This document shows positions 3,549-58,049 of a stretch of DNA of 64,000 nt, piece after piece (the first letter of the stretch is position 1; every line of letters starts with the position of its first letter). The stretch is from an uncultured Collinsella sp. Its GTDB lineage: Bacteria > Actinomycetota > Coriobacteriia > Coriobacteriales > Coriobacteriaceae. The notes under the pieces were generated by a model. The model saw only the letters and a list, made by a program, of their open reading frames with translations, searched no databases and was not told the DNA's origin. The position numbers were made by a program, and so were the translations under genes. Location: positions 33,130 through 97,129 of the forward strand of contig UQNH01000001.1 in the NCBI GenBank assembly GCA_900542365.1, given 5' to 3'.

Positions 3549-5132
3549 ATGTCTGATCGTTTGACGGTCCTGACGTCTAAGAGCGTCTTTACCGGTACGG
3601 GGGACCTGCCGTTTGAAGGTTTCGTAGCGGTCCGTGGCAATCGAATTGAGGCTGTTGGCACCAAGTGTGAGGTAGCTTCGTATTTGACCCAAGCGGACGA
3701 GGTAGTTGACCTGGGCGACCGCACCGTCATGCCTGGCCTGATCGATGTGCATACCTTCTATACGGGCTGGGCGCTGCGGACGTTGGGGTCTGATCTATCC
3801 GGCGTCGCCGATGCCAAAGAGGCCGTGTCGCTCTTGCGTGCATGGAAAGATGATCATCCGGATTGTGCGGCGGCTTTTGGCCACAACATGCCCGAAACGT
3901 TGGCATCGGATGCCGAGAACGCAAATACGGCAGCTGTGTTTGACGATTGTTTTGGCGATATCCCTGTCGTCTGCTTTACACCGGGTGCGGAGACCTGCGT
4001 TCTCAATGCTGCCGCCAGTGCGCGATACGGCTTTACACCCCAGGCGTGCTATGCCGAGAAGATCTGGCGCATGATGAGCGATTTCCTCGCGCTACCCGAG
4101 GTGCGCGCCGGGTATTCGGACTACATGAGCATGCTTAACGAGCGCGGCGTTACCGCCATCAAGGAGATGGCGTTTGATGACTACTACGGCTTTGCCGACG
4201 AAATGGCTCGCCGTGAGGAATCTGGTGAGCTGACGGTTCGCGTCTCTATGATGTCGCAGCCGGTGGGTGCCGGTGCAAATTTGGCATATGCCCGCGAGGC
4301 GCGAGAGCGCTTCCGGGGACCGTTCGTTCGTTTTTCTGGCTTCAACCGTATGACCGATCGCGGCGTATGGGCGGGGCTTGCCGAGATGATTGACCCCTAT
4401 GAGGACACGGCCGATGCGGGAGCTGCCGGCAAGACGGTTGTCGAAGAGCCCGAGTGGGATCTGATTGAGAACGAGCTGCGTGCAATTGATGCTGACGGCT
4501 TCCGATATTCCTTGCATTGCCAGGGCGATGGCGCCGTTCGCCGCACCGTGGCGCTCTATGCCTCGCTGCCTCGAGACGAGCATGGACGGATGCTTCGCCG
4601 CCATGCGATTACCGATCTCGAGAACTCTGACCCGACCGATCTTGTCGAGTTTGGCAAGTTAGGCGGAATTTGCGAGGTCTATCCGCAGATTCTGACGCTG
4701 GACCGGCGCGAGGATTGCCTGTCGATGATGCGTCGACAAATTGGCGAGACGCGACTTTTGCACAGCTGGAATCGCCGCGGCATGGAAGATTCCGGATGCA
4801 CAGTGTGCTGTGGAACGGATTTGCCACTGCTGATTCCGAGCCTGGGCGAGTCAATCTACAGCGCGTGCGGCGGATTCTTCGCCGACGGACTGCCCGTGAA
4901 TGAGGTCAACACGCTGACGCTTGTCGAGCTCTTGCGCGCTTGGACTGCCGGGGGCGCGTACGATCTGATGCGCGAAGACGAGCTGGGTACGCTTGAGGTT
5001 GGCAAGCTTGCCGATATCTGCGTGCTCAATCGGGATGTGTTCGACCTCGATTATCGCGACGCACGCGATCTTGCGGTTGATATGACGATGTCGGACGGAC
5101 AAATCGTGTTCGATCGAAATAAGGAGGCATAA
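3549..5132 (+). CDS. Amidohydrolase-3 family metal-dependent hydrolase
   Basis: VMPGLIDVHTF metal-binding start motif; about 527 aa. RBS AGGTGG 5 nt upstream of ATG-3549. Confidence 0.7.
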   Translation: MSDRLTVLTSKSVFTGTGDLPFEGFVAVRGNRIEAVGTKCEVASYLTQADEVVDLGDRTVMPGLIDVHTFYTGWALRTLGSDLSGVADAKEAVSLLRAWKDDHPDCAAAFGHNMPETLASDAENANTAAVFDDCFGDIPVVCFTPGAETCVLNAAASARYGFTPQACYAEKIWRMMSDFLALPEVRAGYSDYMSMLNERGVTAIKEMAFDDYYGFADEMARREESGELTVRVSMMSQPVGAGANLAYAREARERFRGPFVRFSGFNRMTDRGVWAGLAEMIDPYEDTADAGAAGKTVVEEPEWDLIENELRAIDADGFRYSLHCQGDGAVRRTVALYASLPRDEHGRMLRRHAITDLENSDPTDLVEFGKLGGICEVYPQILTLDRREDCLSMMRRQIGETRLLHSWNRRGMEDSGCTVCCGTDLPLLIPSLGESIYSACGGFFADGLPVNEVNTLTLVELLRAWTAGGAYDLMREDELGTLEVGKLADICVLNRDVFDLDYRDARDLAVDMTMSDGQIVFDRNKEA

Positions 5133-8843: not shown

Positions 8844-9704
8844 ATGGTTATCGACATGTTGGTCCATCCTATGCTCTACGGCGAGATCTGTACGCCGGGT
8901 GATGAGCCTGATGGATTCGGTTTTTGGTCACGAGAATTTGGTATGGGGCATATGGGCCCCATGGATTGGGATGAGCTTCAAGTCGAGATGGACGTCTGCG
9001 ATGTGCAGAAGAGCGTGCTCATGCCGCTCGATGTAACCACGGCATGCGGAGGGCACTTTGGCACCAATGACCAGATTGCCATGCTGGTTGCCGCACATCC
9101 CGATCGTCTGTGGGGATTTGCGAGCGTAGACCCGCAGGTGAGCGGTGCCGCAGACGAATTGGAGCGCGCCTTTACCGAGTTGGGGGCAAAGGGGCTTTGC
9201 CTGCATCCTGCAAAGCAGGGTTTTGCCCCCGATGATGCTGTGGCCGAGCCGCTTTACGAACTGTGCGAGCGCTATAACAAGCCGGTGGTTTTCCATGCCG
9301 GTATGTCTTGGGAGCCGGGCGCAGAGCTCTCGCGCAGTAACCCGCTTGCATTTGAGCACACAATCGCAACGCATCCAAATGTGCGTTTTAGTTTGACCCA
9401 TTTTGGCTGGCCCTGGGTGCGCGAGACCGTGGCGATGCTGCTCAAGTATCCCAACTGCTACGTGGACACCTCTATCACTTACATCGATTCGCCCGAGGAG
9501 ATGATGCAGCGTCTTTTCACGGTCGATATGGGGCCGCTGTGGTATGAGCGCGCGCTATCGCACCAAGTGATGTTCGCCAGCAATACGCCGCGCTTCCGTG
9601 CATTCAAACTCAAGCGGGCGCTCGATACCGTGCCCATGCGCGATGACGCGCGAGAAAGGCTCTACTGGGGTAATGCCCTGCGTTTTCTTGAAGGGGATGA
9701 GTGA
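8844..9704 (+). CDS. Amidohydrolase-2 (ACMSD-like TIM-barrel) family protein
   Basis: MVIDMLVHP start, FHAG and THFGWPW motifs. RBS AAGGAG 6 nt before ATG-8844. Confidence 0.65.
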   Translation: MVIDMLVHPMLYGEICTPGDEPDGFGFWSREFGMGHMGPMDWDELQVEMDVCDVQKSVLMPLDVTTACGGHFGTNDQIAMLVAAHPDRLWGFASVDPQVSGAADELERAFTELGAKGLCLHPAKQGFAPDDAVAEPLYELCERYNKPVVFHAGMSWEPGAELSRSNPLAFEHTIATHPNVRFSLTHFGWPWVRETVAMLLKYPNCYVDTSITYIDSPEEMMQRLFTVDMGPLWYERALSHQVMFASNTPRFRAFKLKRALDTVPMRDDARERLYWGNALRFLEGDE

Positions 9705-17589: not shown

Positions 17590-18717
17590 ATGCTTTCGCG
17601 TCGTCGTTTTCTGCAACTTGTCGCGTCTTCAATTGTCGCCTTAGCCGCACGTCCGAAAGAGGTTTTTGCTTTGACGGGCAATATTGATGGTGAGCAGATA
17701 CAATTTACTTCAGAAATTGCGCAAGAGCTTGCCGATAAATATATAAAGGGACTCCTCGGCTCTTCGTATACGCCTTCTGACCCTATTCCTTTTGTAGACG
17801 TTGATGGGTCCCCGCTTGGCTACATTGTTCCGGTTGTGACATTCAATAGAGCCGCGGGCTATTTGGTTTTAGATGCTTCAGATGATGAAATACTTACGGG
17901 ATATCGTTTTGGAGACGGCTTAGTCAGCCCTATGGATCGGGGAGGAGATCTTGGTGTTGAGTCTTATTCTTTCAATAACCCAGTCGTAATGATCAATCCA
18001 TTCGAATTCGGTGTGCAATCTTTGGACGGTTCAATAACAACAAATTGCGGAAGAACAATCCCGGCTGTTTCCATAGAAGGACGGCCTGTCGTTTTATCGA
18101 ATAAACCTTCAAGCTGGAACGATGTCGTAATTTACGCAACTCAAATGCAGGATTACACAGTATCTGGATTTCGTTCCATTTCTCAGTTTATGTCATATGA
18201 TGAAAGCGAGATTAAGAGGCTTACTGCCCACTATGCTTGTATGGTGACAGCTTTTTCGAACGTTGCGGAACTGTATGGCATTGCCAATTTATATAACGAC
18301 CCTTCGCAATATATGCAGATATGGAATTACACCAATACCCATGCTCTTTCCGATGAAGAACAGACTGTTCCCGGCGTTGTTTTGGGCGGAACGCCGATAT
18401 CAACCTGTGCAACGGGGTTTACAAATTACTGCGCAAGCAGAGGAAGTACTCTTATCGCCCGCACTGTCTCCTCTCCGGCTATCGCGAGCATTCAAAATGA
18501 GATTAACTCTAATAGACCGAATGTTTTACATGCGAGTTTGTACAACGGATCAGCCCATTCTGTAACAGCGGAGGCTTACGCCACACTTACTGGTAAGAAA
18601 ACTGGAGAGACAAGGCAGATGATTGGCATAGCGGACGGCTGGAATTCATCTTTATCCTTCCTGAAGTATGATCAGAGCTATTATGCGTGGACTTATGGAA
18701 CGACTTTTTCGAAGTAG
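17590..18717 (+). CDS. Tat-signal secreted protein, possible papain-fold (C39-like) cysteine peptidase
   Basis: Twin-arginine signal MLSRRRFLQLVASSIVALAA. HYACMVTAFSNVAELYG and GSAHSVTAEAY...DGWN resemble Cys/His/Asp-type C39-like motifs; the functional call is inference. AT-richer than the flanks. Confidence 0.45.
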   Translation: MLSRRRFLQLVASSIVALAARPKEVFALTGNIDGEQIQFTSEIAQELADKYIKGLLGSSYTPSDPIPFVDVDGSPLGYIVPVVTFNRAAGYLVLDASDDEILTGYRFGDGLVSPMDRGGDLGVESYSFNNPVVMINPFEFGVQSLDGSITTNCGRTIPAVSIEGRPVVLSNKPSSWNDVVIYATQMQDYTVSGFRSISQFMSYDESEIKRLTAHYACMVTAFSNVAELYGIANLYNDPSQYMQIWNYTNTHALSDEEQTVPGVVLGGTPISTCATGFTNYCASRGSTLIARTVSSPAIASIQNEINSNRPNVLHASLYNGSAHSVTAEAYATLTGKKTGETRQMIGIADGWNSSLSFLKYDQSYYAWTYGTTFSK

Positions 18718-19087
18718 GACGATTCGTCTAGCTCTGTCTTTGGTGCTGATGGCTTCATTGGTGGGCTGTTCAACAAAGGAAGAGATATCGCGCGGAGGTT
18801 CCGGAGAAGTGACTGCGACAGACTCAGGTTCATTAGAAATAGCTGGCGGGCATGCCGATGTGATGTTACAAGGAAAAGGCGTGCTTAGGTCGATTGATGC
18901 TGAAGACGCTGTCTGCTCAATAGAGGATTTGAAGACAGGTGAAACTGCATCGTACCGAGTTTCAGATAATGCTGCGAATATGATTGAGTCGATACCGACT
19001 GGAGCGCAGGTTTCTTTTAGATACTTTGCTCCGCAACTTGAGGATGAGCTTGCTTCTCTGGTGTCTATATGCGCCGATGACAACTAA
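18695..19087 (+). CDS. Lipoprotein, unknown function
   Basis: Signal plus lipobox in MERLFRSRTIRLALSLVLMASLVGC. Overlaps the 3' end of the upstream gene. ATG-18683 is an alternative start. Confidence 0.55.
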   Translation: MERLFRSRTIRLALSLVLMASLVGCSTKEEISRGGSGEVTATDSGSLEIAGGHADVMLQGKGVLRSIDAEDAVCSIEDLKTGETASYRVSDNAANMIESIPTGAQVSFRYFAPQLEDELASLVSICADDN

Positions 19088-19102
19088 AAGGCCTGAATTC
19101 AA

Positions 19103-19144
19103 ACGGCCTCAGATGGTCAATTGGCTATCCGAGGCCGTTTTTTA
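19103..19144. terminator. Hairpin plus T-tract between convergent genes
   Basis: ACGGCCTC ... GAGGCCGT with a 20-nt loop, followed by TTTTTT. Confidence 0.5.
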
Positions 19145-20449
19145 CTCGACCGGGGCTTCGACCTTGTCGATGGCCCAGGTGGCTCCGAGGCCGCCGGTGG
19201 TGTTGCGGCGAATGCGTACGGTGACTTCGTGGCGTTTGCCGGCCTGTGTGTAGCGCAGGGGGAAGCTCGCGCGGTTACGGCCGGCCTCGATGGTACCGCG
19301 CTCGCGAGCGATCCAGTAGTACTCGCCGACGATGCCGAGGGTGTCGGCGCCGTAGGGGAGATAAGTCGACAGCTGGTGCAGCAGCGGGCTAGGGCAGAAG
19401 ACCTCGGTCGCGAAATCGATGGGGAAGTCCCCGGGGATGGTTGGTGCTGCGGAAGCGGGGGCCGGTGCTGAATTGGGGACCGGAGTCGGTGCAGGTGTGG
19501 GAGCCTGGTCACAGGCGGGTGCGGATGCGGACTCAATGACAGGTGCAGACTCAGATGCCGCTTCTGGCTTAGCTATGGAATCTGTCGGTTCCACGGAGAT
19601 GGACGTGTCTTCGGTCCCGGTTTTGGCATCGGCCTGCGGAGTGTCCTCTGCCTCGACGTTCGGCTTGGCCTCGACCGGCGTGGATACCATGGTGGTGATG
19701 CCGGCGTTGGCGTTCTCGGGGTCGTAGACAACCGTGAGCGAGATGGCAGGCTGGGGCGCCTCGGGCTCCGGTGTTGCCTCGGCAGCATCTTGATCCGCGA
19801 GCTCGTCGGACTGATTGTCCTCGGTGTTGTCGCCAAAGACATCGTGGTTCTGGAACACGGGCGCCTCGGGCTGGCCAGCCGCCTCTTCGGTTGTCGACTT
19901 GGATGCCTCGTTGAGCTCCGCAGTGGCTTCCTGCTCGGATATGACTTCGGGATCGGTCGTGGCGGCGATTTCGGTTTCGGCCTCTGCTGTTACTCCAATA
20001 GCGACTTCGATCTCTGTCTCGGGTTCGGGTTCCGGCACGGCTCCAACCATGGCTTCGGGCTCGGGACGCTTAACGTGCTTGGGGCGCACGGCCTTCAGGT
20101 CCTTCTTGCCGTGCTTCTTCTTTTTGTAGGACTGCTTGGCGCCCTTGGTAGCCTTGCGCTTGTCCTCGTCCTTGGCAAGGGCGGCATCCCATGCCTCGTT
20201 GGCGATGACGGTGGCATACAGGCGGCCGCCCTTAAAGACGGTCAGTTTAATGCAGTCGTCGAGTTCCTCGAGCAACTCGCGCGTGGACTCGAAGCCCAAG
20301 TCATAAGCGGCCATGTCGCCGGCGGCGAGCGCCTCCTCGACCTGCGTCATAAACGTTTGCTTACCGCACCCAATCGCGTCGCGCAGCAGGCGATACAGAT
20401 AGATGTGGTTGCCCAGCGATAGCGTGGGCCTAACTATTGTCTTGCTCAT
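19142..20449 (-). CDS. Hypothetical protein: OST-HTH/LOTUS-like N-domain, long acidic/Pro-Thr-Ala-rich linker, conserved C-domain
   Basis: Start MSKTIVRP with RBS GAGGAG. The N-terminal segment DLGFESTRELLEELDDCIKLTVFKGGRLYATV resembles OST-HTH (inference). The middle is low complexity. Confidence 0.5.
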   Translation of the reverse strand: MSKTIVRPTLSLGNHIYLYRLLRDAIGCGKQTFMTQVEEALAAGDMAAYDLGFESTRELLEELDDCIKLTVFKGGRLYATVIANEAWDAALAKDEDKRKATKGAKQSYKKKKHGKKDLKAVRPKHVKRPEPEAMVGAVPEPEPETEIEVAIGVTAEAETEIAATTDPEVISEQEATAELNEASKSTTEEAAGQPEAPVFQNHDVFGDNTEDNQSDELADQDAAEATPEPEAPQPAISLTVVYDPENANAGITTMVSTPVEAKPNVEAEDTPQADAKTGTEDTSISVEPTDSIAKPEAASESAPVIESASAPACDQAPTPAPTPVPNSAPAPASAAPTIPGDFPIDFATEVFCPSPLLHQLSTYLPYGADTLGIVGEYYWIARERGTIEAGRNRASFPLRYTQAGKRHEVTVRIRRNTTGGLGATWAIDKVEAPVE

Positions 20450-20521
20450 GGCAAATCTCCTCTTTACACACGTAAAGCATCTTACCATCGCATAGCGTTC
20501 GCCATGGCGGCACCCAAGGCA

Positions 20522-20555
20522 AACGGGCGCGAACCGCTATCGATTCGCGCCCGTT
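20522..20555 (-). terminator. Perfect 12-bp hairpin between two minus-strand genes (possible U-tract-poor terminator)
   Basis: AACGGGCGCGAA / TTCGCGCCCGTT with a 10-nt loop. Confidence 0.5.
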
Positions 20556-20585
20556 GTACAGGTTGCCTATCTGGGGATGCAGTGC

Positions 20586-21527
20586 TTAGTTGCCCGATGC
20601 CGTGCCTTGGCTCGAGCTGTTAGATGTCGTGCCCAATGTGGTGTCACTCGAATTGCTGTTGCTGCTGCCTGCTGTGCCCGTTCCCGACGTGGTGTCGCTC
20701 GTCTGGCCGCCCGTGCTCGGTTGAGAGCCGTCAGTCGTTTGGCTTGAGTCAGTCGTGCCGGATTGCGTGCCGCTGTTGGCCGTAGAGGAATCGGCGCCCT
20801 GCGATTGATCGGGGGTGTTCGATGACGAGTCGGTGGATGCGGAGTTACCCTGCGGGTCGTCCTGCTGGCTTTGCGATTGACCGGAGCTATCCGCGTCGTG
20901 CTCGGTCGTATGCGACGAAAGGATCGGCTCGGGGCGCTCGCCCAGGCCCTCACCGGCAGTGGTGATAAGGATGGCGCCGGCGCAGGCGATGACCGCGACG
21001 ATGGCGATGGCGATCGAGAAGACGATGACCTTCTTTTGCGTCTGGCTGCGCTCTGCCGCCGCCTTGGCGCGCAGGCTGTTGGGAGCGACGCGCGCCGTGG
21101 TCGCGCGTCCCGCAACCTGGCGCATCTCCTGCGTGGTTGCGGCGCCACCTAGGTGCTCCTCGACATTGGGCTCAACGGGCTCGTAGGCGCCGGTAGGGTA
21201 GTCGACAGCGGCATGCGTGCCCTTGATTGCTTCGGCGCTGGCGGAGATAAAGTGGCGATAGACCTGCGAGGACACAACAGTGATGACTGAGCTCACAGCG
21301 GCACCAATCACCGAGCCGGCAATGCCGATCTTTGAAGCAAGCGCCACGCTCGTGGCGGCAGCTGCGGCGCCGGCGATGATCTGGGGAATGGAAATGTCGT
21401 CGAACAGGCCCTTTTTGGGCGCGATGGCCATGGTCTGTCCGATGGAATGGTTCTCGTGCACGCCGTTGTTGAGTGATGCCGGCGTCATGACGCGCGTGCG
21501 CGGCGCGTCGGTGTACTTGGTTGTCAT
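20586..21527 (-). CDS. Membrane protein with a Ser/Thr/Gly/Gln-rich extracellular tail
   Basis: Start MTTKYTD with RBS GGGAGGA. Two hydrophobic segments, followed by low complexity such as SSTANSGTQSGTTDSSQTTDGSQPSTGG. Confidence 0.55.
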   Translation of the reverse strand: MTTKYTDAPRTRVMTPASLNNGVHENHSIGQTMAIAPKKGLFDDISIPQIIAGAAAAATSVALASKIGIAGSVIGAAVSSVITVVSSQVYRHFISASAEAIKGTHAAVDYPTGAYEPVEPNVEEHLGGAATTQEMRQVAGRATTARVAPNSLRAKAAAERSQTQKKVIVFSIAIAIVAVIACAGAILITTAGEGLGERPEPILSSHTTEHDADSSGQSQSQQDDPQGNSASTDSSSNTPDQSQGADSSTANSGTQSGTTDSSQTTDGSQPSTGGQTSDTTSGTGTAGSSNSNSSDTTLGTTSNSSSQGTASGN

Positions 21528-21701
21528 ACGGGGTCCTCCCGGTGTAAATCTGCTTCGTTTCGTGTAGCCATCAGGGTACCCACCAGATGTGAATCGTACG
21601 TGACATTTAACAGATACCATCAACTCATCAAGGGGGCCTGCTGTCTTTGGTGCGATAGCTTGATGCTAAACTGGATTTATGTTTGCGAGGTGGTTTACGT
21701 G

Positions 21702-21920
21702 ATGTACCCGTATATGACATTCGAAGATGGAACCGAGGTCATTCATTCTGACCTGATTACAGATGGCGATATCGAAAAGGTTATCGTGCATTTTGAACGA
21801 CCGACGGCAGAGGGTTTCGACTCCGCTCGTTGTGAGTTGCCTTCCTGTTCGTGGACTGACTGGGAAGGGCATTTTACTCAGAGTGAAAAACGAGCTTTCG
21901 AAGAGTGTCTGAGCAAATAA
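21702..21920 (+). CDS. Small hypothetical protein (72 aa)
   Basis: MYPYMTFEDGTEVIHSDL...; RBS GCGAGGTGG. First gene of the AT-rich islet. Confidence 0.45.
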   Translation: MYPYMTFEDGTEVIHSDLITDGDIEKVIVHFERPTAEGFDSARCELPSCSWTDWEGHFTQSEKRAFEECLSK

Positions 21921-22020
21921 TTTAGATTAGTTCGAGTTTAGTTCGAATAAAGAAGCTGAATGCGATGACCTAAAGCGTATGCATTTTTAGTATTAGATGC
22001 GTATGAAATGGAGGATGTGA

Positions 22021-22302
22021 ATGGATGAGCTAATAGACTTTAAAAAACGATTTCTCAAGAATGGCGAGCTGGTTTCAATTCCAAAAAAGGAAAGCTATAA
22101 AAGAATCATGCTGCTATGGGCCGTCTCTTTCTTTGAATTAAATACAAGTTATACGGAGCTTCAGGTTAATCGTGTGCTGTCACAGCTCTATCCTGATTAT
22201 GCCGTGTTGAGGCGGTGCTTGGTTGATTATGGATTCCTATTAAGGGATGAACGAGGCCTGAAATACGAGGTTAATCGTGATGTTCACGGTATTGAGAGCT
22301 AG
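22021..22302 (+). CDS. DUF2087 domain protein (regulator-associated domain)
   Basis: YTELQVNRVLSQLYPDYAVLRRCLVDYGFLLRDERG matches the DUF2087 pattern. RBS GGAGGA. Confidence 0.65.
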   Translation: MDELIDFKKRFLKNGELVSIPKKESYKRIMLLWAVSFFELNTSYTELQVNRVLSQLYPDYAVLRRCLVDYGFLLRDERGLKYEVNRDVHGIES

Positions 22303-23464
22303 CCGTCCGGTTCGGGTCCTATATATTGCTAGAGGGATAAGCGAAATAGGCAATTGGTGTGCGAATATTGCTTTGCCAATGCTAATTTACGAGGTAACTC
22401 ACGATGTTTCTGCAACTGCTTTGATGGTCTGCTGCAGATTTGCCCCCTCTCTGTTTTCAGTTGCGCTCGCGCAGCTGCCTCAGAAGATGGGTATCGGGAC
22501 ACTGCAGGCCATGAGATTGGCAGACTTAATTCGCGCGGGATTATTCGTTTGCTATATTTTTGTTGATAGTAAATGGAGTATGTTTGCTATTACGTGCGCG
22601 GTATCGCTTTGCCGAACGGTAGAAATGCCCTGCTTTTACTCGTTGTTAAGAGCCAATACGAATAGTATCAATCGCGACGTAATTAATAATTCGTTTGGGT
22701 TCCTGCAGAATTTGATGATGGTTCTGGGGCCAGTTGCCGGCGGTTTTGTTGTCGCTCAATTTGGGGCGGAGGCTGTTCTTGCATTAGACGCGCTTTCTTT
22801 TGCCGCGTCGTTCTGGTTGCTGCGAGATGTTCCGTCGGTTATCGAGGTTAATGATAAAGAGGGAATAAGCAAAAATGAAAAAAACAGGACTGCATTTAGT
22901 GATCTTAGCGCGAAGCACTTGGCAATTGGTTTCCTATTAATCGATATTTCTAGTGGCGTGGCATTCGGCTCTCTGAATTCTCTTTTGCCAGCTATAGCGC
23001 AATTGCAATTTGACTCGTCATCGATACAATACGGATTCCTTCAGAGTAGTCTTACAATCGGACTGTTGTTCGGAAATACAATATATGGTCGTTTAATCAG
23101 TGGTTCCGATTGCGTTAAATCATATTGTTTTGTGACGTATCTTGCGCTCGGTGCGTATCTGGCGTTTGGCTATCGCTATGCGTCTGGGATATCGTTTATT
23201 TTCCTTTTTATCGTCGGTGCCGGAAACGCCATTCAAGATGTGCTTCTCATAACATCGCTGCAGGATTTGGCGAGAGACGGATCTGAATCGATAAGCCTGT
23301 TTTCAATTAGGGAGTCTTTGCAATCGGTTGCTGTTGTTATTTCAACACTTCTTGTTTCGCTGTTCACGAGCATCGCGATGTTCTCAATTCTCGTTACAGG
23401 ACTTGGTGTATTTTCAATTATGATGGTAGTTGTGTTTCAATTGAATTATTTGCGAAAGATGTGA
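22280..23464 (+). CDS. MFS transporter
   Basis: About 394 aa with roughly 12 hydrophobic segments. Overlaps the DUF2087 gene 3' end. GTG-22277 is an alternative start. Confidence 0.75.
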   Translation: MFTVLRASRPVRVLYIARGISEIGNWCANIALPMLIYEVTHDVSATALMVCCRFAPSLFSVALAQLPQKMGIGTLQAMRLADLIRAGLFVCYIFVDSKWSMFAITCAVSLCRTVEMPCFYSLLRANTNSINRDVINNSFGFLQNLMMVLGPVAGGFVVAQFGAEAVLALDALSFAASFWLLRDVPSVIEVNDKEGISKNEKNRTAFSDLSAKHLAIGFLLIDISSGVAFGSLNSLLPAIAQLQFDSSSIQYGFLQSSLTIGLLFGNTIYGRLISGSDCVKSYCFVTYLALGAYLAFGYRYASGISFIFLFIVGAGNAIQDVLLITSLQDLARDGSESISLFSIRESLQSVAVVISTLLVSLFTSIAMFSILVTGLGVFSIMMVVVFQLNYLRKM

Positions 23465-23471
23465 CGTTGAT

Positions 23472-25793
23472 ATGCCTAAAACGCTTTTAGTATTTCCCCC
23501 AGGATGGAGTCCAGTGGGGCCGTATCTTGCCTTGCCTGTTTTGAAGTCATATCTTCAAGAGGTTGAACAATACAAAGTTGACATTGTTGACTTAAACGTG
23601 GAATTTTACGATGACCTCCTATCTTTTAGACATGTCGAAGAGTGCTGTAAAAGGTATCGGGAATCAAAGGATTCGTTTAGTTCGAATGTCCAATTAACAA
23701 TCGAGTTGATACAAAAGTCGGCACTTAATGTTGACGAGGCAAAAGATATTTTCAGATCGAAGAGATACTTTAATCTAAAAGAAAGACAATATGCTGAAAA
23801 CATTTTTAGAAATGCACTCTATATCATAAATCACGTCTCATATGGAGTTAAATACACGTTCAACTCCATAGATCTGCCCTATGATTATTATTCGACACCA
23901 GAAATAATGAAATCGCTTGCGGATACCTTGCATAATCCGTTTATTTCCTTCTATGAAACTGCCTTTCTTAAGCGTATTCAGAGGGAAAAAATCGAGTTTA
24001 TTGGGATTTCGGTGAGCGGCTGTTTCCAATTGATTTCTGCAGTTACGTTAGCGAAACTGATTAAAGAAGAATGTCCATCTGTTAAACACGTCTCATTGGG
24101 CGGCAATTACATTACTCGTTTAGCAGATGACTGCATGAAAGAATGGCATCCCTTTTTTGAATACATTGATTCGATAATGATGTATGACGGCGAAGAGCCG
24201 CTTGCACGTCTTCTTGAGGCTCTTGACTCTGGTGATGACAATCTCGACTGTGTTCCAAACCTTTGCCATGCTAAAGGTGGAAAGATATATAAAAACCATC
24301 GGATTGAGCAAACATTTATCAACGATACAGTTCCCGATTTCGATGGCTTCGCCCTTTCTAAATACTTCATGCCTGAGCTAATATTGCCGGTTTATTCCTC
24401 TAGGCAGTGTTTTAATCATTGCGCCTTCTGCACCATTCCCGGTGCTACCGGTGGTTGTTACCGAAAGATGCCTATATCGAGAGTATTTGAAATAATGTGT
24501 CGGTTAAATGAAAAATACGGCACGAGAGTTTTCTCTTTTGTGGATGAAACATTCGAAGGCAAAAGAATGGAGCAACTCGCGGATGAAATAAACGCATCGG
24601 GAAAAACGTTTTTCTGGCATGGAGAAACGAGGTTCTCTCCAACCCTAAGTACAGACGTTTTTAACAAGATATACCAAAGTGGATGTAGGCAGATTCAGTT
24701 TGGCCTCGAGTCATACAACCAAAGAGTTCTTGATCTAATGAAGAAGAACACGAGAGTTGATTGGATTGATCGCAATATCCATGATTGTCTCAATGCGGGT
24801 ATTCCTGTTCATCTATTTTTTATGATTGGCTTTCCGACCGAAACTAAAGAAGAGGCTCTGAACACCTTAGCTTATACAGAGAATGTTTTGAATTATTCAA
24901 AACAGGTATGTGGTGTTCCATATTCCACGAGAGGATTTACGAATTTTGGTCTCGTTATGGGGTCGGATGTTTGGAATCATCCCGATAAGTATGGTGTCTC
25001 TGTAATGCCGCAGTCCCAATATGAGGATTTGCGCCTCGAAGTAGATTATGTTTCAGGCACTGGTTTAACTTTAAATGAAGCAAAATCCTTATCTGATGAG
25101 CATCATATTGATTTTTATATGCAAGAGGTCATAAACGGTAGCGACACAATTGACTTGCCCCAGCGGCTTCATATTTCAGAGGTGACCTGGATCCTAGATT
25201 CTATTCACGCTGTCAGGTATAAGGGACATTTGACCAAAGTAAAGCGACGGCTAACTAGTCTAAATCCAGCTGATCGAATCTGGCTGGATTCCAAGACCTC
25301 TGTCGTGCTCGTTGAGCCATTTGCCTACTTCTATAATTCTGAATACCATCATGTCTATGCTGTTTCCCAGTTGGTATACCATAAGTTGGCCCGTTTATTG
25401 GAGGCCGATTGTAGCATTTCTCTTATTCTTGATCAGGGCGACCTCGAGCTGACAAGGGCGATAGAAGAACTGTTGCATTATGGATTGCTGAATACAAATA
25501 TCGATGCCGATTATGTAATGCACGATAATGGTTTTCAATTGGTTAAAAGTTCGTTTGTTAAAGAAGTCGGACGCTCAAAAGAGGGGTTAAGAGTACTGCT
25601 GAGTTGTGCCACCCATAGAATGTGTGCGGTTAATGATTTTTCGTTCGCTTTGCTTTCGTTGTTTGAAAAGCCGATTACTAAGAACGAGGTGCGCGACATT
25701 TTGAAAAAAGAGGGACTATCGACAAGCGAGGAGCAATTAAACAAGTTGGTTGATAATTGCATGAAAGCAGATATACTACAACTGATTAGATAG
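23472..25793 (+). CDS. B12-binding-domain radical SAM enzyme (RiPP-maturase-type C-methyltransferase-like) with a C-terminal PqqD/RRE-like region
   Basis: CFNHCAFC = CX3CX2C at 24408-24431. The N-terminus TLLVFPPGWSPVGPYLALPVLKSYLQ...DLNVEFYD resembles class-B rSAM bacteriocin-maturation proteins. The C-terminal ~175 aa contain two PqqD-like segments. Confidence 0.8.
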   Translation: MPKTLLVFPPGWSPVGPYLALPVLKSYLQEVEQYKVDIVDLNVEFYDDLLSFRHVEECCKRYRESKDSFSSNVQLTIELIQKSALNVDEAKDIFRSKRYFNLKERQYAENIFRNALYIINHVSYGVKYTFNSIDLPYDYYSTPEIMKSLADTLHNPFISFYETAFLKRIQREKIEFIGISVSGCFQLISAVTLAKLIKEECPSVKHVSLGGNYITRLADDCMKEWHPFFEYIDSIMMYDGEEPLARLLEALDSGDDNLDCVPNLCHAKGGKIYKNHRIEQTFINDTVPDFDGFALSKYFMPELILPVYSSRQCFNHCAFCTIPGATGGCYRKMPISRVFEIMCRLNEKYGTRVFSFVDETFEGKRMEQLADEINASGKTFFWHGETRFSPTLSTDVFNKIYQSGCRQIQFGLESYNQRVLDLMKKNTRVDWIDRNIHDCLNAGIPVHLFFMIGFPTETKEEALNTLAYTENVLNYSKQVCGVPYSTRGFTNFGLVMGSDVWNHPDKYGVSVMPQSQYEDLRLEVDYVSGTGLTLNEAKSLSDEHHIDFYMQEVINGSDTIDLPQRLHISEVTWILDSIHAVRYKGHLTKVKRRLTSLNPADRIWLDSKTSVVLVEPFAYFYNSEYHHVYAVSQLVYHKLARLLEADCSISLILDQGDLELTRAIEELLHYGLLNTNIDADYVMHDNGFQLVKSSFVKEVGRSKEGLRVLLSCATHRMCAVNDFSFALLSLFEKPITKNEVRDILKKEGLSTSEEQLNKLVDNCMKADILQLIR

Positions 25794-25806
25794 AGGAGGT
25801 TTCTGC

Positions 25807-25917
25807 ATGGACGTTATTAACAAAGATCTCTTGGAGCAACTGAAAGAGTCTCAGGAAGAGGGCGTCGTGGTAGAAGTGTTCGACTTTGAGGACTACATGG
25901 ATAAATTCTGCCATTAG
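25807..25917 (+). CDS. Candidate RiPP precursor peptide (36 aa), absent from the ORF track
   Basis: ATG lies 7 nt after GAGGAGG. Translation MDVINKDLLEQLKESQEEGVVVEVFDFEDYMDKFCH. Starts 14 nt after the rSAM stop codon and is followed by an intrinsic terminator. Confidence 0.65.
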   Translation: MDVINKDLLEQLKESQEEGVVVEVFDFEDYMDKFCH

Positions 25918-25943
25918 TTTCGGAATTTTCTTGCCTCGCTTAA

Positions 25944-25976
25944 AGGAGAAGTCGATTATCGATTTCTCCTTTTTTA
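25944..25976 (+). terminator. Rho-independent terminator closing the rSAM-peptide operon
   Basis: AGGAGAA (25944-25950) / TTCTCCT (25964-25970), followed by TTTTT. Confidence 0.75.
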
Positions 25977-26105
25977 GTTAAAGATATTTTTGGAATACAT
26001 GCTCTTAGCACAGGTTAGCGTCTCAGTAAACTGGGAGGTTGCTTTGGCTAGTTAGAGATATGTGAACGTCCGTTAGACTGAATCTCAGGGTAGAAGGGGC
26101 CTCCA

Positions 26106-28106
26106 GTGTCCAGATCAACAAGGCAATGCTGCGTTTCGGCTAATAAGAACGACGGCTTTCTGCGGGTTGCGGCGGCGTCGCCGCGGATTCGCGTGGCCGA
26201 TGTCGAGGGCAATGCCGAGGTTGCGCTGGCGGCTGTTCGCGATGCTGCCGAGCGTGGCGTTCGCGCGCTGGTGCTGCCCGAGCTTAATCTGTGCGGCTAT
26301 ACCGCGGCCGATCTGTTCCATAACCGTACATTGCTGCATGCCTGCGAGACCGTACTGGCACATATTCTCGATGAAACTCGCGAGCTGCCGATCGTCTTTA
26401 CCGTTGGCTTGCCCGTTGCGGTGGCAGAAAACATCTACAACTGCGCCGCCGTGTGCTGCGCGGGCGAGCTCTTGGGCCTCACGGCCAAGAAGTATCTGCC
26501 CAACTATGGCGAGTTCTATGAACGCCGTTGGTTTGCTCCGGCGCCTACGGATCCCGTGTGGGTTGATTTTGCCGGTCAGGGCCCGGTCCCGCTTGGTTCG
26601 GGGCTCATTTACCGTTGCTGTGATGAGGGCGCCGAGGACCTGGTGCTGGGCGTTGAGGTCTGCGAGGACCTGTGGGTGCCGGCGCCCCCTTCGACCGAGA
26701 TGGCGCTTGCCGGTGCGACGGTGATTCTCAACCCGTCGGCCTCGGACGAGATTATCGGTAAGGCAGATTACCGCCGCAGCCTTATCTCCAATCAGAGTGC
26801 GCGCCTGTACTGCGCCTATGCCTATGCGGATGCGAGCGAGGGCGAGTCCACGACCGATATGGTCTTTGCGGGGGAGAACCTCGTCTACGAAAACGGTTCG
26901 AAGCTCGCCGCGACGAAGCTCCTCACTTGCGATATGGCCGTCGCCGACGTCGATCTTGACCGCCTGGTTGCCGAGCGCCGTCGCTCGACGACGTGGACAC
27001 GCGCGGACGATGCGCTGGAGGCCACGACCGTTGAGTTTTCGTTTGAGGGCGCGCTGGCCAAAGAGCCTGTTCTGCGCGATGCCTGCGATATCGACCGCGT
27101 TTTCCCTCGCGCGCCTTTTGTGCCGGCCGACCACGGTGATCTGGCCGAGCGCTGCGAGACTATTCTCAATCTGCAGACTGCTGGCCTCAAGACTCGCCTT
27201 GCCCATACGGGCACCAAGGCGGCCGTCATCGGCCTTTCGGGCGGCCTGGACTCCACGCTGGCACTGCTTGTGACCGTGCGCGCCTTCGATGCACTGGGGC
27301 TGCCGCGCACGGGTATCACGGCGGTCTCCATGCCCGGCTTTGGCACGACGCACCGCACCAAGTCCAATGCCGAGTCGCTTGCTCGCGGTCTGGGTGTCTC
27401 CTTCCGCGAGGTCTCGATCCATGCTGCCGTTGAGCAGCACTTTAAGGACATCGAGCACGACCCGGCCGTTCGGGACGTGACCTACGAGAACAGCCAGGCG
27501 CGCGAGCGTACGCAGATTCTCATGGACTTGGCCAACCAGGCCGGCGGCTTTGTCATCGGTACCGGCGACCTGTCGGAGCTGGCGCTCGGCTGGGCTACGT
27601 ACAACGGCGACCATATGAGCATGTACGCCGTCAACGCGAGCGTGCCCAAGACGCTCGTACGCCATCTGGTGCGCTATGCGGCCGATGTCTTTGGCGGGCG
27701 CATCGCCACCACGCTGCTCGACATCCTCGATACGCCGGTGTCTCCCGAACTTCTGCCGCCCACGGGCGACGGCGAGATCGCCCAGAAGACCGAAGACCTG
27801 GTGGGCCCCTACGAGCTGCACGACTACTTCCTCTACTACCTGCTGCGCTTTGGCTTTGAGCCGGGCAAGATCTACCGCATGGCGCTCAAGAGCTTTGGGG
27901 GCGTCTATGACGAGGTGACGATTCATACGTGGCTGCGTACGTTCTACCGCCGCTTCTTTGCTCAGCAGTTTAAGCGCAGCTGCCTGCCCGACGGTCCCAA
28001 GGTGGGCTCGGTGACGCTCAGCCCGCGCGGCGATTGGCGCATGCCGAGCGACGCCAGCTCGCGCCTGTGGCTCGCGCAGATCGACGCACTCAATCCGATT
28101 GACTAA
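26106..28106 (+). CDS. nadE: Glutamine-dependent NAD+ synthetase (CN-hydrolase + NAD synthetase domains)
   Basis: GFLRVAAASPRIRVADVEGN N-terminus, SGGLDSTL PP-loop, 666 aa. The GTG start is uncertain. Confidence 0.85.
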   Translation: MSRSTRQCCVSANKNDGFLRVAAASPRIRVADVEGNAEVALAAVRDAAERGVRALVLPELNLCGYTAADLFHNRTLLHACETVLAHILDETRELPIVFTVGLPVAVAENIYNCAAVCCAGELLGLTAKKYLPNYGEFYERRWFAPAPTDPVWVDFAGQGPVPLGSGLIYRCCDEGAEDLVLGVEVCEDLWVPAPPSTEMALAGATVILNPSASDEIIGKADYRRSLISNQSARLYCAYAYADASEGESTTDMVFAGENLVYENGSKLAATKLLTCDMAVADVDLDRLVAERRRSTTWTRADDALEATTVEFSFEGALAKEPVLRDACDIDRVFPRAPFVPADHGDLAERCETILNLQTAGLKTRLAHTGTKAAVIGLSGGLDSTLALLVTVRAFDALGLPRTGITAVSMPGFGTTHRTKSNAESLARGLGVSFREVSIHAAVEQHFKDIEHDPAVRDVTYENSQARERTQILMDLANQAGGFVIGTGDLSELALGWATYNGDHMSMYAVNASVPKTLVRHLVRYAADVFGGRIATTLLDILDTPVSPELLPPTGDGEIAQKTEDLVGPYELHDYFLYYLLRFGFEPGKIYRMALKSFGGVYDEVTIHTWLRTFYRRFFAQQFKRSCLPDGPKVGSVTLSPRGDWRMPSDASSRLWLAQIDALNPID

Positions 28107-28224
28107 GGTTGGCTAAATTGAACCTATATAGGGGTTGCAAGCGGTACACTTTTGCAATCTGATGGCCCGTATCGCGCGGCGCTCTTGTCGGAGCGCCGCG
28201 TTTTTCATATCGAAAGGTGGCACC

Positions 28225-29388
28225 ATGCAGGCATCGCAGCGTCTCGACCGCTTTGGCGCGGAGGTCTTCGCCTCGCTCAACAACGAACTTCTCGCGCTGA
28301 AGGCTCAGGGCAAGACCATTTACAACATGAGCGTGGGCACGCCCGACTTTAAGCCGTACGACCATGTGGTCGAGGCGCTCACGCATGCAGCCCAAGATCC
28401 CGAGATGTGGAAGTATGCCCTGCGCGACCTGCCCGAACTCAAACAAGCCGTGTGCGATTACTATGAGCGTCGCTTTGGCGTTTCGGGCATTACACCGTCC
28501 ATGGTGCAGTCGTGCAACGGCACGCAGGAGGGCGTGGGCCATTTGGGCCTGGCCCTGCTCGATCCGGGTGACACCATCCTGGTTCCCGATCCGTGCTACC
28601 CGGTCTTTGAGGCGGGTGCCAAGATCGCCGATGCCAAGCTCGAGTACTATCCGCTGGTGGCGGAGCACAATTACCTGCCCTATGTGGCGGGTATCGATCC
28701 CGAGGTGGCCGATCGTGCCAAGTATATGATCGTGTCGCTGCCCGCGAACCCGGTCGGCTCGGTGGGCACTCCCGAGGTCTACGAGGAGATCATCGCTTTC
28801 GCCCGCGAGCACGACCTGCTCATCGTCCATGACAACGCGTACTCCGACATCGTGTTCGACGGCGAGCCGGGCGGCAGCTTCTTGCAGTATCCCGGCGCGC
28901 TCGAGGTGGGCGTTGAGTTCTTCTCGCTCTCCAAGTCGTTTAACGTCACCGGTGCGCGTATCGGCTTTTTGGTCGGCCGCGAGGATGTGGTCTCTGCCTT
29001 TGCCAAGCTGCGCGGCCAGATCGACTTCGGTATGTTCTTCCCGATCCAGAAGGCCGCCATCGCCTGCCTGAACGGTCCGCGCGATGAGGTCGAGGCGCAG
29101 CGTCTGAAGTACCAGGAGCGCCGCGATGCCCTGTGCGACGGTCTTGAGGGCCTGGGCTGGGAGCGTCCCAACGCGCATGGTTCTATGTTTGTGTGGGCCA
29201 AGCTTCCCGGTGGTCGCACCGATTCCATGGCGTTTTGCGAGGAGCTCATGGAGAAGGCCGGCGTTGTGGTGACGCCGGGCGCGAGCTTTGGTCCTTCGGG
29301 CGAGGGACACGTGCGCATGGCGCTGGTCCTGCCGCCCGACCAGATTGCTTTGGCTGTCGAGGCCATTCGTGAGGCGGGCCTGTATTAG
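28225..29388 (+). CDS. Class I/II PLP-dependent aminotransferase
   Basis: MQASQRLDRFGAEVFASLNNE..., SLSKSFNVTGARIG (PLP lysine motif). RBS AAAGGTGG. Confidence 0.8.
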   Translation: MQASQRLDRFGAEVFASLNNELLALKAQGKTIYNMSVGTPDFKPYDHVVEALTHAAQDPEMWKYALRDLPELKQAVCDYYERRFGVSGITPSMVQSCNGTQEGVGHLGLALLDPGDTILVPDPCYPVFEAGAKIADAKLEYYPLVAEHNYLPYVAGIDPEVADRAKYMIVSLPANPVGSVGTPEVYEEIIAFAREHDLLIVHDNAYSDIVFDGEPGGSFLQYPGALEVGVEFFSLSKSFNVTGARIGFLVGREDVVSAFAKLRGQIDFGMFFPIQKAAIACLNGPRDEVEAQRLKYQERRDALCDGLEGLGWERPNAHGSMFVWAKLPGGRTDSMAFCEELMEKAGVVVTPGASFGPSGEGHVRMALVLPPDQIALAVEAIREAGLY

Positions 29389-29589
29389 AAAGGTATTTCG
29401 ACTCGTCAATAGCTCGAAACCGATTTCGTGCAGTTATTTTACGAATACTGCAAACAATTTCGGTAAACGGTCGATTTTTGGCTGCGAATAGGAGCATAAT
29501 CAAAGTCCCGATTGGATGTATTGGGATTACGGCAAGCCGCTCGGGTCGTTCCCGGGCGGCTTGTTTGTGGAGAGAGATGGGAGTTTCTA

Positions 29590-56714: not shown

Positions 56715-56909
56715 AAACGGCTCACACGACGTTTTCGTCGCCGGTTGAGACCATCTTTTCTCTGCTAATGCTAACCCGGAGATGCCTGTTCAAGTGGGTG
56801 TCTCCGGGCTCGTTATTTGTTGCGAACCGGTGACAATTCGAATTCACATGAGTAGCCAGGTCGCGGCCGATCTACGCTAACGCCTTGAAATCGAGTTAAG
56901 GATTGTTTG

Positions 56910-57994: not shown

Positions 57995-58005
57995 CCTTGA
58001 CGCGA

Positions 58006-58037: not shown

Positions 58038-58049
58038 GAAGGGGATCAA

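Follow-up and report, generated by a model that had tools for sequence, protein, structure and literature searches.

A low-GC island in the Collinsella aerofaciens group carries a probable RiPP-type cassette with a class-B radical SAM enzyme and a tandem recognition element

Introduction

What is a 36-codon open reading frame (ORF) doing directly behind the gene for a radical S-adenosylmethionine (rSAM) enzyme? The question is raised by a 64,000-nt stretch of DNA from an uncultured Collinsella sp. (GenBank assembly GCA_900542365.1, contig UQNH01000001.1, positions 33,130 to 97,129 of the forward strand), which is called the window here. A low-GC island in the window holds genes for a DUF2087 protein, a major facilitator superfamily (MFS) transporter, and a 773-aa rSAM enzyme, and the short ORF comes last. 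A first-pass annotation, made from the letters of the window, had proposed a single rSAM step on a short peptide. Our analysis suggests that the four genes probably make up a compact, horizontally acquired and uncharacterised biosynthetic cassette for a peptide that is made by ribosomes and modified after translation (RiPP). The order of genes in the first-pass annotation, namely a 72-aa ORF, the DUF2087 gene, an MFS gene overlapping the DUF2087 stop, the 773-aa rSAM gene and the 36-codon ORF, all on the plus strand, is correct. The parts of the cassette are as follows.

22021..22302, plus strand: stand-alone DUF2087 protein of 93 aa, putative regulator or modulator (PF09860, 3.4e-19)
22280..23464, plus strand: MFS transporter (MFS_3/MFS_1, EntS-like), presumed exporter and/or immunity protein (Pfam and NCBIfam)
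23472..25793, plus strand: class-B (cobalamin-domain type) rSAM enzyme of 773 aa with a C-terminal tandem RiPP-recognition element (RRE) (PF04055, 6.9e-18)
24408..24431, plus strand: radical SAM [4Fe-4S] motif, C313-x3-C317-x2-C320 (alignment of 19 homologues)
25233..25790, plus strand: tandem double RRE, residues about 588-675 and 689-772 of the enzyme (two modules of a beta-sheet and three helices, in both models)
25807..25917, plus strand: putative precursor peptide of 36 aa, MDVINKDLLEQLKESQEEGVVVEVFDFEDYMDKFCH (leader at residues 1-22 or so; C-terminal K33-F34-C35-H36)

A short peptide gene accompanies the enzyme

The ATG of the peptide ORF lies 13 nt past the rSAM stop codon. The first-pass annotation had counted 14 nt; the strong Shine-Dalgarno sequence and the terminator that it assigned to the ORF were both recovered, as an AGGAGG and a 14-pair hairpin. 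Counted over 152 Collinsella loci, the ORF was free of disruption in 151 (90 of 90 from genomes and 61 of 62 from metagenomes), and it was also called independently on other contigs. Of the 90 genome loci, 89 encode the same 12 residues at the end of the peptide. The last 14 residues are identical in three diverged Coriobacteriia islands, those of the window and of the loci L091 and L180, and the proteins of the window and L091 are 42% (DUF2087), 42% (MFS), and 60% (rSAM) identical. In other words, the C-terminus of the peptide is better conserved than any protein of the cassette.

More evidence came from relatives of the enzyme. Neighbourhoods were fetched for rSAM homologues at 34-60% identity, and the DNA 3' of each rSAM gene was read. 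Ten loci, which span four phyla with Actinomycetota, Bacillota, and Fusobacteriota among them, have a short ORF immediately 3' of the rSAM gene. The Bacillota loci are Lachnospiraceae-type (L092 and L131) or come from Dorea, Desulfosporosinus, Lactococcus lactis, and a Paraclostridium plasmid. Thus, nine loci beyond the main Collinsella variant hold a recognisable counterpart of the ORF 3' of the rSAM gene, and in every close family member the ORF directly follows or slightly overlaps that gene. An MFS gene adjoins the rSAM gene in all ten loci and a DUF2087 gene in five of them. Whether the rSAM homologues are associated with peptides had been set beforehand as a test that could refute the first-pass annotation, and the answer from the ten loci is that they are. 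The peptides are listed below.

Window: MDVINKDLLEQLKESQEEGVVVEVFDFEDYMDKFCH
L091: MLPIDLEIIEKLKETCEEGVKIEVFDFEDYMDKFCH
L180: MDVISRDLLEKLKDSQKEGVKIEVFDFEDYMDKFCH
L092 (Lachnospiraceae-type): MDKQLLEKLKELEEKEIIAESLENQDYVMKYAT
L131 (Lachnospiraceae-type): MEKELIERLKELEAQDIFAENLENEDYVVKYST
Desulfosporosinus: ..LSKEILKQLQEEALTKEVTAEVFDTCSNSTQYV
L. lactis: MDFEKIKSLAEVMEVQSTKDSAQAVDSEMNTKYC
Dorea: ..MLELLQEIKEMVNEEIKFDVMANQSVNDAMNTTQYSP
Fusobacterium nucleatum: ..MKKLILIEIKKLSEKEGVEVKNCDLGSSLTTKYA
Paraclostridium plasmid: VSQSKLNKLKNYKEKTIKFDKNIVSQSTTQYCLK

These peptides share an acidic N-terminal leader that resembles (L/I)(L/I)E(K/Q)LKE and an end that consists of [KQ]-[YF]-small residue followed by 0-2 more residues; the fuller C-terminal pattern is [TSND]-[TK]-[KQ]-[YF]-x(1-2). 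The first-pass expectation that the 36-aa ORF would be conserved is borne out by the shared leader and end together with the three identical C-termini. Because an rSAM gene and a short ORF of the leader/core type are kept together in ten loci, the family bears the mark by which a RiPP gene cluster is recognised. Two wider scans mostly returned Collinsella. A scan of genome contigs with the rSAM family alignment found only near-identical Collinsella copies and no distant neighbourhoods, and in a scan of metagenomes only the loci L131 and L153 were new and informative.

The enzyme has a predicted class-B fold and a tandem recognition element

The rSAM core of the enzyme was recognised by PF04055 with 65.8 bits (cutoff 29.5). 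Among 19 diverse homologues that were aligned, C313 and C320 of the [4Fe-4S] motif are invariant and C317 is present in at least 90%. An AlphaFold2 model built from this family alignment reached a predicted local distance difference test (pLDDT) score of 89.6 and a predicted template modelling (pTM) score of 0.91, with a high-confidence barrel. The top Foldseek matches of the model in the PDB were OxsB (3.5e-16), TsrM (1.4e-15), MgmA, CysS, TokK, and AprD4, with E values from 1e-12 to 1e-16. These top matches are all cobalamin-dependent rSAM enzymes. Their alignments span 410-660 columns at a sequence identity of 12-17%, and the B12-type domain of the model contains a helical insertion of about 130 aa. 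A search of the PDB by sequence returned only matches to the rSAM core. The modelled fold therefore supports a class-B architecture and nothing more specific. The class-B assignment of the first-pass annotation agrees with the folds of OxsB, TsrM, and TokK, with the B12-binding profile PF02310 remaining sub-threshold. No SPASM or twitch domain was matched in the enzyme (PF13186, TIGR04085).

To which family does the enzyme belong? The best NCBIfam model was TIGR03975, a RiPP C-methyltransferase (120.1 bits, 1e-34, cutoff 281.85), followed by the P-methyltransferase PhpK (107 bits, 6e-31, cutoff 600) and by ApyD (NF050148; 84.9 bits, 4.3e-24, cutoff 750). As scored by NCBIfam, the enzyme belongs to no named family. 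A resemblance to the rSAM C-methyltransferases of bacteriocin maturation had been noted at first pass; TIGR03975 is indeed the nearest model, and membership in that family is contradicted by a score of 120 bits against the cutoff. The source names of the homologues in protein databases are all generic. More distant homologues from Streptomyces and Chondromyces align over the catalytic 70% only and are located in larger, different clusters. In one of these, the Streptomyces locus L099, a SPASM rSAM, a PqqD protein, a P450, and an MFS gene lie beside the distant homologue, and a 52-60-aa peptide encoded upstream (L099 4710-4892) has a leader, ..DIDRLKQIAAEDDELPEV.., that resembles the LLEQLKE leader.

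The C-terminus of the enzyme, described as an RRE-like tail at first pass, is a double RRE as judged from profiles and models. The window protein itself has no Pfam PqqD match, and PqqD was matched by four of 17 aligned homologues (best 1.5e-8). A profile of the last 90 aa searched against the PDB had as its top three matches a PqqD-family protein (1.3e-3), TfuB1 (3.2e-3), and TbiB1 (3.4e-3). When the 193-aa tail was modelled alone (pLDDT 89.4), Foldseek matched it to ThcOx over 205 columns. ThcOx has additional RRE copies (PMC8795117). Further Foldseek matches of the tail were TigE, TbiB1 with leader, TglHI, MibB, PqqD, TfuB1, MccB, PbtF-RRE, and CteB.

The transporter and the DUF2087 protein

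The MFS protein starts at 22277 or 22280 and overlaps the DUF2087 stop by ~23 nt. It matched MFS_1 (7e-16, 58.5 bits, cutoff 33.4) and MFS_3 (7e-12, 45 bits, cutoff 27). Its score with the EntS equivalog model was 47.6 bits, far under the cutoff of 324, and it is thus not a member of that family. The protein is 42% identical to its counterpart in L091, 28% to that in L097, and 23% to that in L093; comparisons with the other loci were not significant. The DUF2087 protein matched PF09860 with 69.2 bits (cutoff 22.4). Its homologues adjoin the rSAM gene in L091 (42% identical), L092 (37%), L093 (33%), and L180. The protein stands alone in the window, L091, and L180; it is fused to GerE in L092 and to an ArsR-type helix-turn-helix (HTH) domain, HTH_20, in L093.

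Proposed pathway

How would the cassette work? The 36-aa peptide would be made from its own strong ribosome-binding site. The tandem RRE of the 773-aa enzyme would bind the helical acidic leader at the N-terminus of the peptide (..DLLEQLKE..), and the catalytic part, a cobalamin-type Rossmann domain with a [4Fe-4S]/SAM barrel, would modify the conserved C-terminal stretch around K33-F34-C35. One possible reaction is a cobalamin-dependent C-methylation: the conserved aromatic residue, or a neighbour of it, would be methylated on an unactivated carbon, which could give beta-methyl-Phe or beta-methyl-Tyr. C-methylation at or beside this residue is the chemistry that we tentatively favour by analogy, although we would not call it probable. 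It is favoured because the three nearest curated models are methyltransferases, the enzyme has no auxiliary Fe-S domain, and ApyD offers a precedent. The leader would then be removed, the MFS_3-type transporter may export the product and perhaps also protect the producer, and the small DUF2087 protein may tune expression. The product could act as a signal or as an antimicrobial.

Relation to known systems

A functional precedent is ApyD of the aminopyruvatide pathway. This B12-rSAM, which contains an RRE, places a beta-methyl group on the penultimate Tyr in a substrate ending in ..GYLYD (PMC10635010). As in ApyD (NF050148), a cobalamin-type rSAM domain is fused to an RRE and paired with a short ribosomal peptide, whose presumed target in the window is likewise an aromatic residue next to the C-terminus. 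However, at 85 bits against a cutoff of 750 the two enzymes are not orthologues, and their precursor families are unrelated. The apy clusters are defined by an oxidative enzyme that depends on a multinuclear non-heme iron centre (MNIO; ApyHI), usually with a P450 and a methyltransferase, and the island has none of these. They occur in Pseudomonadota and Actinomycetota, whereas the family described here is found mainly in low-GC anaerobes. A second point of comparison is TIGR03975 (rSAM_ocin_1), which covers the PoyB/PoyC-type enzymes of proteusin biosynthesis. These are class-B enzymes as well and act on ribosomal peptides, and the alignment to the model spans residues 6-519, that is, the B12 and rSAM domains. 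Apart from its sub-cutoff score, the window enzyme differs by a 250-aa tail with the tandem RRE that lies outside the model, and the island lacks the nitrile-hydratase-like or Nif11-like leaders, epimerases, and dehydratases of those systems.

The combination of genes is also reminiscent of the bottromycin (btm) cluster. In Streptomyces scabies, the DUF2087 protein BtmL specifically modulates the precursor gene, for which a transcription start lies within the preceding gene (PMC7113386). The btm cluster shares with the island a DUF2087 protein (BtmL), an MFS protein (BtmA), class-B rSAM methyltransferases, and a short precursor, and in the island a promoter-like site, identified by consensus match only, occupies the equivalent place. 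The comparison concerns the combination of genes. Unlike the btm cluster, the island has no YcaO enzymes, P450, proteases, O-methyltransferase, or follower peptide, and it has one rSAM gene instead of three. The streptococcal RaS-RiPP operons (shp/rgg; streptide, tryglysin, ryptides) are minimal in a similar way: besides a single rSAM gene they comprise genes for a short precursor and a transporter, with a neighbouring regulator gene (PMC9389541, PMC11002830). The L. lactis member of the present family lies directly 3' of an Rgg gene. RaS-RiPP products are presumed to serve host-associated bacteria as signals or as antimicrobials of narrow spectrum (PMC9389541, PMC11002830). However, the RaS-RiPP maturases are SPASM/twitch cross-linkers, and the window enzyme is of class B and has no SPASM domain. 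Mining beyond streptococci used SPASM/twitch-containing rSAMs that co-occur with transporter genes (PMC11002830) and would therefore miss this family.

A class-B rSAM, a short precursor, and an MFS gene are found in one operon for MpcB of the clavusporins (PMC10849626) and BipD of the biphenomycins (PMC12707348). MpcB methylates many aliphatic residues and depends on an S9 peptidase and a DUF5825 partner. BipD forms a biaryl bond and requires ortho-tyrosines made by an MNIO. The partners and core motifs of both systems are absent from the island. A literature search found no description of this cassette family, with thin coverage of subscription journals, so an earlier publication is possible. 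What appears to be new here is a precursor family without a name, an enzyme clade that falls outside the curated models, and the presence of a tandem RRE on an rSAM of class B.

An inserted island in the Collinsella chromosome

The limits of the island were set against a genome in which the site is empty.

21632..26150, no strand assigned: inserted low-GC island
26106..28106, plus strand: nadE, glutamine-dependent NAD+ synthetase, core-genome flank (Pfam CN_hydrolase and NAD_synthase)

The empty site is present in one related genome, L181 (GCA_027669365.1), whose synteny with the window is otherwise the same. Homology is lost at 21631 of the window and returns at 26151, and the 4519 nt in between correspond to 123 nt in L181 (8902-9024), located between a hypothetical gene and nadE. 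The first ~45 nt of the annotated nadE gene belong to the inserted segment. In 1-kb bins, GC content is 0.389-0.445 across 22001-26000 and 0.61-0.64 in the core-gene flanks. The bin 23001-24000 (0.389) is the minimum of the window, which confirms that this is its most AT-rich stretch. The limits of the island match both the drop in GC and a fall in divergence between strains.

The gene context of the island consists of ThiF, an ArsR-type HTH protein, SdpI, ABC-F, two hypothetical proteins, the island, nadE, an aminotransferase, and Ldh. Many human-gut contigs, as well as Collinsella genomes, encode an identical rSAM protein in this context, and the host of the island is the C. aerofaciens group. 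At the same site, L180, a more distant relative (nadE DNA 81% identical), carries another allele of the island. The L180 island DNA is only 64-70% identical to that of the window, below the identity of its own flanks. It is bracketed by 137-bp direct repeats of the nadE 5' region (4707-4843 and 9037-9173, 94% identical), which look like an integration scar. At the borders of the window island no flanking repeat, integrase or transposase gene, or tRNA was found. The empty site shows that the cassette was inserted into the Collinsella chromosome, and it was probably acquired horizontally.

One allele across many lineages

C. aerofaciens is reported to comprise 19 clades at 95% average nucleotide identity (PMC10039858). 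How does the island vary among Collinsella lineages? In 90 Collinsella genome loci, identity to the window is 99.3-99.5% for the DUF2087, MFS, rSAM, and peptide genes. In the flanks of the same loci it is 91.0% for nadE, 90.7% for the upstream hypothetical gene, and 96.1% for the aminotransferase gene. These loci were ranked by how closely they resemble the rSAM, which biases them toward intact copies, and the comparison was redone on metagenome loci ranked against a Dorea homologue. Among the metagenome loci, pairwise divergence in the rSAM gene was 0.5-0.7%; the MFS gene had a median of 0.9%, and the flanks compared (19000-21600 and 26150-29400) were 5-9.5% diverged. The tract of low divergence coincides with the low-GC tract at 21632-26150. 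Thus, a single allele of the island is nearly unchanged across otherwise well-separated lineages. Because this allele, ~0.6% diverged, sits amid flanks that are 5-9% diverged, it likely spread recently by recombination across the species complex.

Loss of the enzyme gene

The same loci display frequent disruption of the rSAM gene. Nine genomes of the genome set have a nonsense mutation in this gene; they represent eight independent events, at codons 12, 60, 186, 225, 280, 320, 348, and 384. The MFS, DUF2087, and peptide genes have none. One of these natural alleles is C320*, and another, Q280*, is carried by Collinsella sp. AF14-35 and AM15-2. Nonsense alleles of the rSAM gene were present in 4 of 12 cultured isolates and 5 of 68 metagenome-assembled genomes (MAGs) (Fisher P = 0.025). 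Recoding of the in-frame stops, by selenocysteine or by read-through, was considered and rejected, because TAA, TAG, and TGA occur at eight unrelated codons.

Among 55 full-length rSAM copies from metagenomes, 24 were intact, 30 were frameshifted, and one had a nonsense mutation. Nine noisy assemblies were dropped, which left 45 loci with both rSAM and MFS genes at full length. The rSAM gene was disrupted in 21 of these and the MFS gene in one, where 10.7 MFS disruptions would be expected by length (P = 2.6e-4) and 8.1 by homopolymer content (P = 2.8e-3, both Poisson). At least 25 different positions of the rSAM gene have indels, many of them within homopolymer-like runs of 5-7 bases; certain indels were seen in more than one sample, and some are on contigs of 13-32x coverage. 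They were taken from assemblies and not from reads, so some may be assembly errors. However, the adjacent and similarly AT-rich MFS gene is rarely disrupted, which argues that most rSAM indels are real. nadE was rejected as an indel control, since at ~90% identity blastn adds spurious 1-nt gaps, and the MFS gene was used instead.

Disrupted copies may also be seen in public protein sets. Among the proteins P0002-P0007, P0008, and P0009, these hold MFS-rSAM fusion products of 1053 aa and versions of the enzyme of 628 aa that are truncated at the N-terminus, the latter in clusters of 280 and 3554 members. Such fused and truncated proteins are consistent with widespread frameshift and nonsense alleles. 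The rSAM gene is split in L180 too. Intact copies are also numerous: the window copy is intact, and the cluster of intact rSAM proteins, P0001, has 12,784 members. Among largely intact copies of the genome set, 83 polymorphic codons of the rSAM gene are synonymous only and 62 change the amino acid (46 and 39 in the MFS gene), a pattern that indicates purifying selection on intact copies. Why would the enzyme gene be lost? One possibility is that costly production is shed while export or immunity stays. Other possibilities are that the enzyme is useless when cobamide is scarce, or that slippage in the gene serves as a switch.

Alternative explanations

Several observations weigh against a working RiPP cassette with a methylating enzyme. 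Disruption of the enzyme gene in nearly half of the clean metagenome loci means that the pathway may often be off or dispensable in Collinsella. The peptide family consists of ten loci that were aligned by hand, and a phmmer search with the peptide alone found only Collinsella variants among 1.84 billion representatives. PF02310 scored 19.9-22.6 bits, below its Pfam cutoff of 32.1, and the enzyme falls under the cutoff of every curated family, methyltransferase families included. The MFS proteins are not clearly orthologous across the cassette loci, and the regulator varies from locus to locus: a DUF2087 protein, an Rgg protein (encoded directly upstream in L. lactis), or a two-component system (as in the Dorea locus). 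The cassette has no leader protease. Finally, RiPP B12-rSAMs also carry out chemistry other than methylation, which is their commonest outcome.

The last point leads to an alternative that keeps the cassette and its substrate and replaces methylation by a cross-link (C-C, C-N, or C-O), a rearrangement, or a modification of the C-terminus, at [KQ]-[YF] or at D29-Y30...K33-F34. BipD is a precedent, since this B12-rSAM performs biaryl coupling with almost no bound methylcobalamin (PMC12707348). Class-B enzymes are also capable of ring contraction, dehydration, and C-S bond formation, as the ApyD paper likewise discusses (PMC10635010), and OxsB and AprD4 are among the top folds. The sub-cutoff scores with the methyltransferase families would fit, and the adjacent K/Q-Y/F pair, together with the D-Y..K-F/Y spacing in the closest group, resembles a recognition or cross-link motif. 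We nonetheless consider such chemistry rather unlikely: the best three curated models are all methyltransferase families, the SPASM/twitch domain typical of cross-linking RiPP rSAMs is absent, and beyond K/Q-Y/F no second residue is conserved family-wide as a cross-link partner. Could the island instead be decaying, or selectively silenced, in Collinsella? The cassette would then make a peptide product in some hosts, whereas in this one the enzyme would be dispensable or costly (through cobalamin limits, self-toxicity, or 'cheating'), and the transporter and peptide would be kept, for example as immunity to the product of a neighbour. This explanation is doubtful. In its favour are the disruption of the rSAM gene and not the MFS gene, the many positions of the indels and their presence on well-covered contigs, the independent nonsense mutations with their excess in isolates, and the split gene of L180. 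The thousands of intact database copies, the signature of purifying selection, the identical peptide C-terminus in diverged islands, which argues for a functional product, and the derivation of the metagenome indels from assemblies speak against decay. A further scenario is also unlikely. The cassette would make an unseen type of modified peptide, and the cobalamin-type rSAM, docked through its double RRE, would carry out a novel reaction at the Lys/Gln-aromatic dyad of the C-terminus. Gut Coriobacteriia would use this peptide as a social molecule, either as a signal or as a toxin of narrow spectrum. One island allele would recently have swept the C. aerofaciens complex by recombination, and enzyme-less 'cheaters' that keep the exporter/immunity and peptide genes would arise recurrently.

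Two other alternatives change the role of the peptide. PqqE with PqqD and MftC with MftB share the plan of an rSAM, a PqqD-type RRE, and a short peptide with conserved residues at or near its C-terminus. As with pyrroloquinoline quinone (PQQ) or mycofactocin, the peptide of the island might be a scaffold that is sacrificed to yield a small molecule. The RRE-docked rSAM would modify the C-terminal K/Q-Y/F-x residues, host peptidases would set free a small diffusible compound, and the EntS-like MFS protein would export it. The absence of a leader protease, the weak resemblance of the transporter to the small-molecule exporter EntS (48 bits), and the restriction of family-wide conservation to two to three C-terminal residues would all be in keeping with a scaffold. 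However, 14 residues are conserved in Coriobacteriia, which is a better fit to a peptide-sized product, the cassette lacks the peptidase, oxidase, or other tailoring gene that such cofactor pathways need, and the catalytic domain is of class B and not SPASM. A scaffold is therefore very improbable. The reading in which the short ORF is not a substrate at all, but arose by chance or encodes a regulatory leader peptide, while the enzyme acts on a non-peptide metabolite moved by the MFS protein, is close to refuted. Many class-B rSAMs do use small molecules, the ORF was missed by some gene callers (in the NCBI record for L007, and in L093 and L095-L097), and promoter and terminator pattern counts are at chance level. 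Against this stand an ORF with the same motif after the rSAM gene in ten loci, its near-universal integrity in Collinsella, a C-terminus that outconserves every cassette protein, and the two RREs on the enzyme, whose known role is to bind precursor peptides. A RiPP-type cassette thus remains the preferred reading of the island.

Other genes and sequence signals of the island

The remaining features of the island are the following.

21705..21920, plus strand: hypothetical ORF of 72 aa, inside the island and outside the conserved cassette
21927..21946, plus strand: tandem 9-nt direct repeat TTAGTTCGA-N2-TTAGTTCGA, in the 100-nt gap 5' of the DUF2087 gene (read from sequence)
25750..25777, plus strand: sigma-70-like promoter match, TTGATA-16-TATACT, in the 3' end of the rSAM gene (10 of 12 consensus positions)
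25794..25799, plus strand: Shine-Dalgarno sequence AGGAGG of the peptide ORF, 7 nt before the ATG (read from sequence)
25942..25977, plus strand: intrinsic-terminator-like hairpin and T-run at the operon end (14-pair stem at 25942-25972, 3-nt loop, TTTTT)

The 72-aa ORF, listed at first pass with the genes of the islet, does lie inside the inserted segment. As a member of the conserved cassette it was rejected, because L091 and L180 have no counterpart: it is unlike the ORF at the same position in L091 and has no nucleotide match in L180, which carries a 5' fragment of nadE there. It has no Pfam or NCBIfam match, and its divergence among Collinsella is intermediate (97.5% identity). The ORF list and the Pfam and NCBIfam searches revealed no protease, YcaO cyclodehydratase, lanthipeptide (Lan) enzyme, or ABC transporter among the genes of the island (21632-26150), in agreement with the first-pass annotation.

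The TTAGTTCGA repeat may be the binding site of a regulator and is an operator candidate. A near-copy of it is located within the rSAM gene (23672-23687). The promoter match is a consensus match only and ends 30 nt 5' of the peptide ATG. GGAGG-type sites are also present 5' of the peptides in L091, L092, and L094. Promoter-like and terminator-like patterns in the region are as numerous as expected from shuffled sequence, and the terminator hairpin carries weight only through its long stem.

Other features of the window

A third low-GC islet (56907-61901) encodes a LysR regulator, two radical SAM/SPASM enzymes that resemble peptide maturases, and an MFS transporter. The best models of the two enzymes are CefB-like (123 bits) and PapB-like (98 bits), both under cutoff, and the islet is probably a second, unrelated rSAM-peptide cluster. 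The first-pass annotation had seen a parallel in architecture between the island and an islet at 57-62 kb with no obvious similarity in sequence. Both observations were upheld, and a link between the two was rejected for want of sequence similarity. A patch of lower GC (45-50%) at 17590-18717 holds a 375-aa ORF that has no Pfam match and that is missing from the otherwise syntenic Collinsella contigs L008 and L010. The stretch 19000-19100 is covered in about half of the loci and is ~1% diverged there. As judged from these comparisons, the patch and its neighbouring stretch are another variable, recently shared segment. The sole Rfam match in the window is a lysine riboswitch on the minus strand (RF00168, 36876-37044, 74 bits, E = 1.5e-17), and the 64-kb window contains no tRNA genes.

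Significance

C. aerofaciens is among the most prevalent Actinomycetota of the human gut, and thousands of sequences in public sets contain identical or near-identical copies of this enzyme. Many rSAM peptide clusters await characterisation, however, and the importance of any one of them is correspondingly limited. If active, the cassette would add an uncharacterised minimal RiPP family to the few peptide pathways that use a cobalamin-type rSAM. It would also offer a naturally occurring class-B rSAM to which a tandem RRE is fused, and its substrate motif is clearly defined, which makes co-expression straightforward. An active cassette would also be a tractable case of a secreted-peptide trait that spreads and is lost in a gut commensal, with an empty site, three diverged alleles that share one peptide C-terminus, an allele about ten times less diverged than its flanks, and frequent inactivation of the enzyme gene alone. 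Cobalamin is contested in the gut, and a dependence of the enzyme on it, if true, would tie the product to the ecology of vitamin B12.

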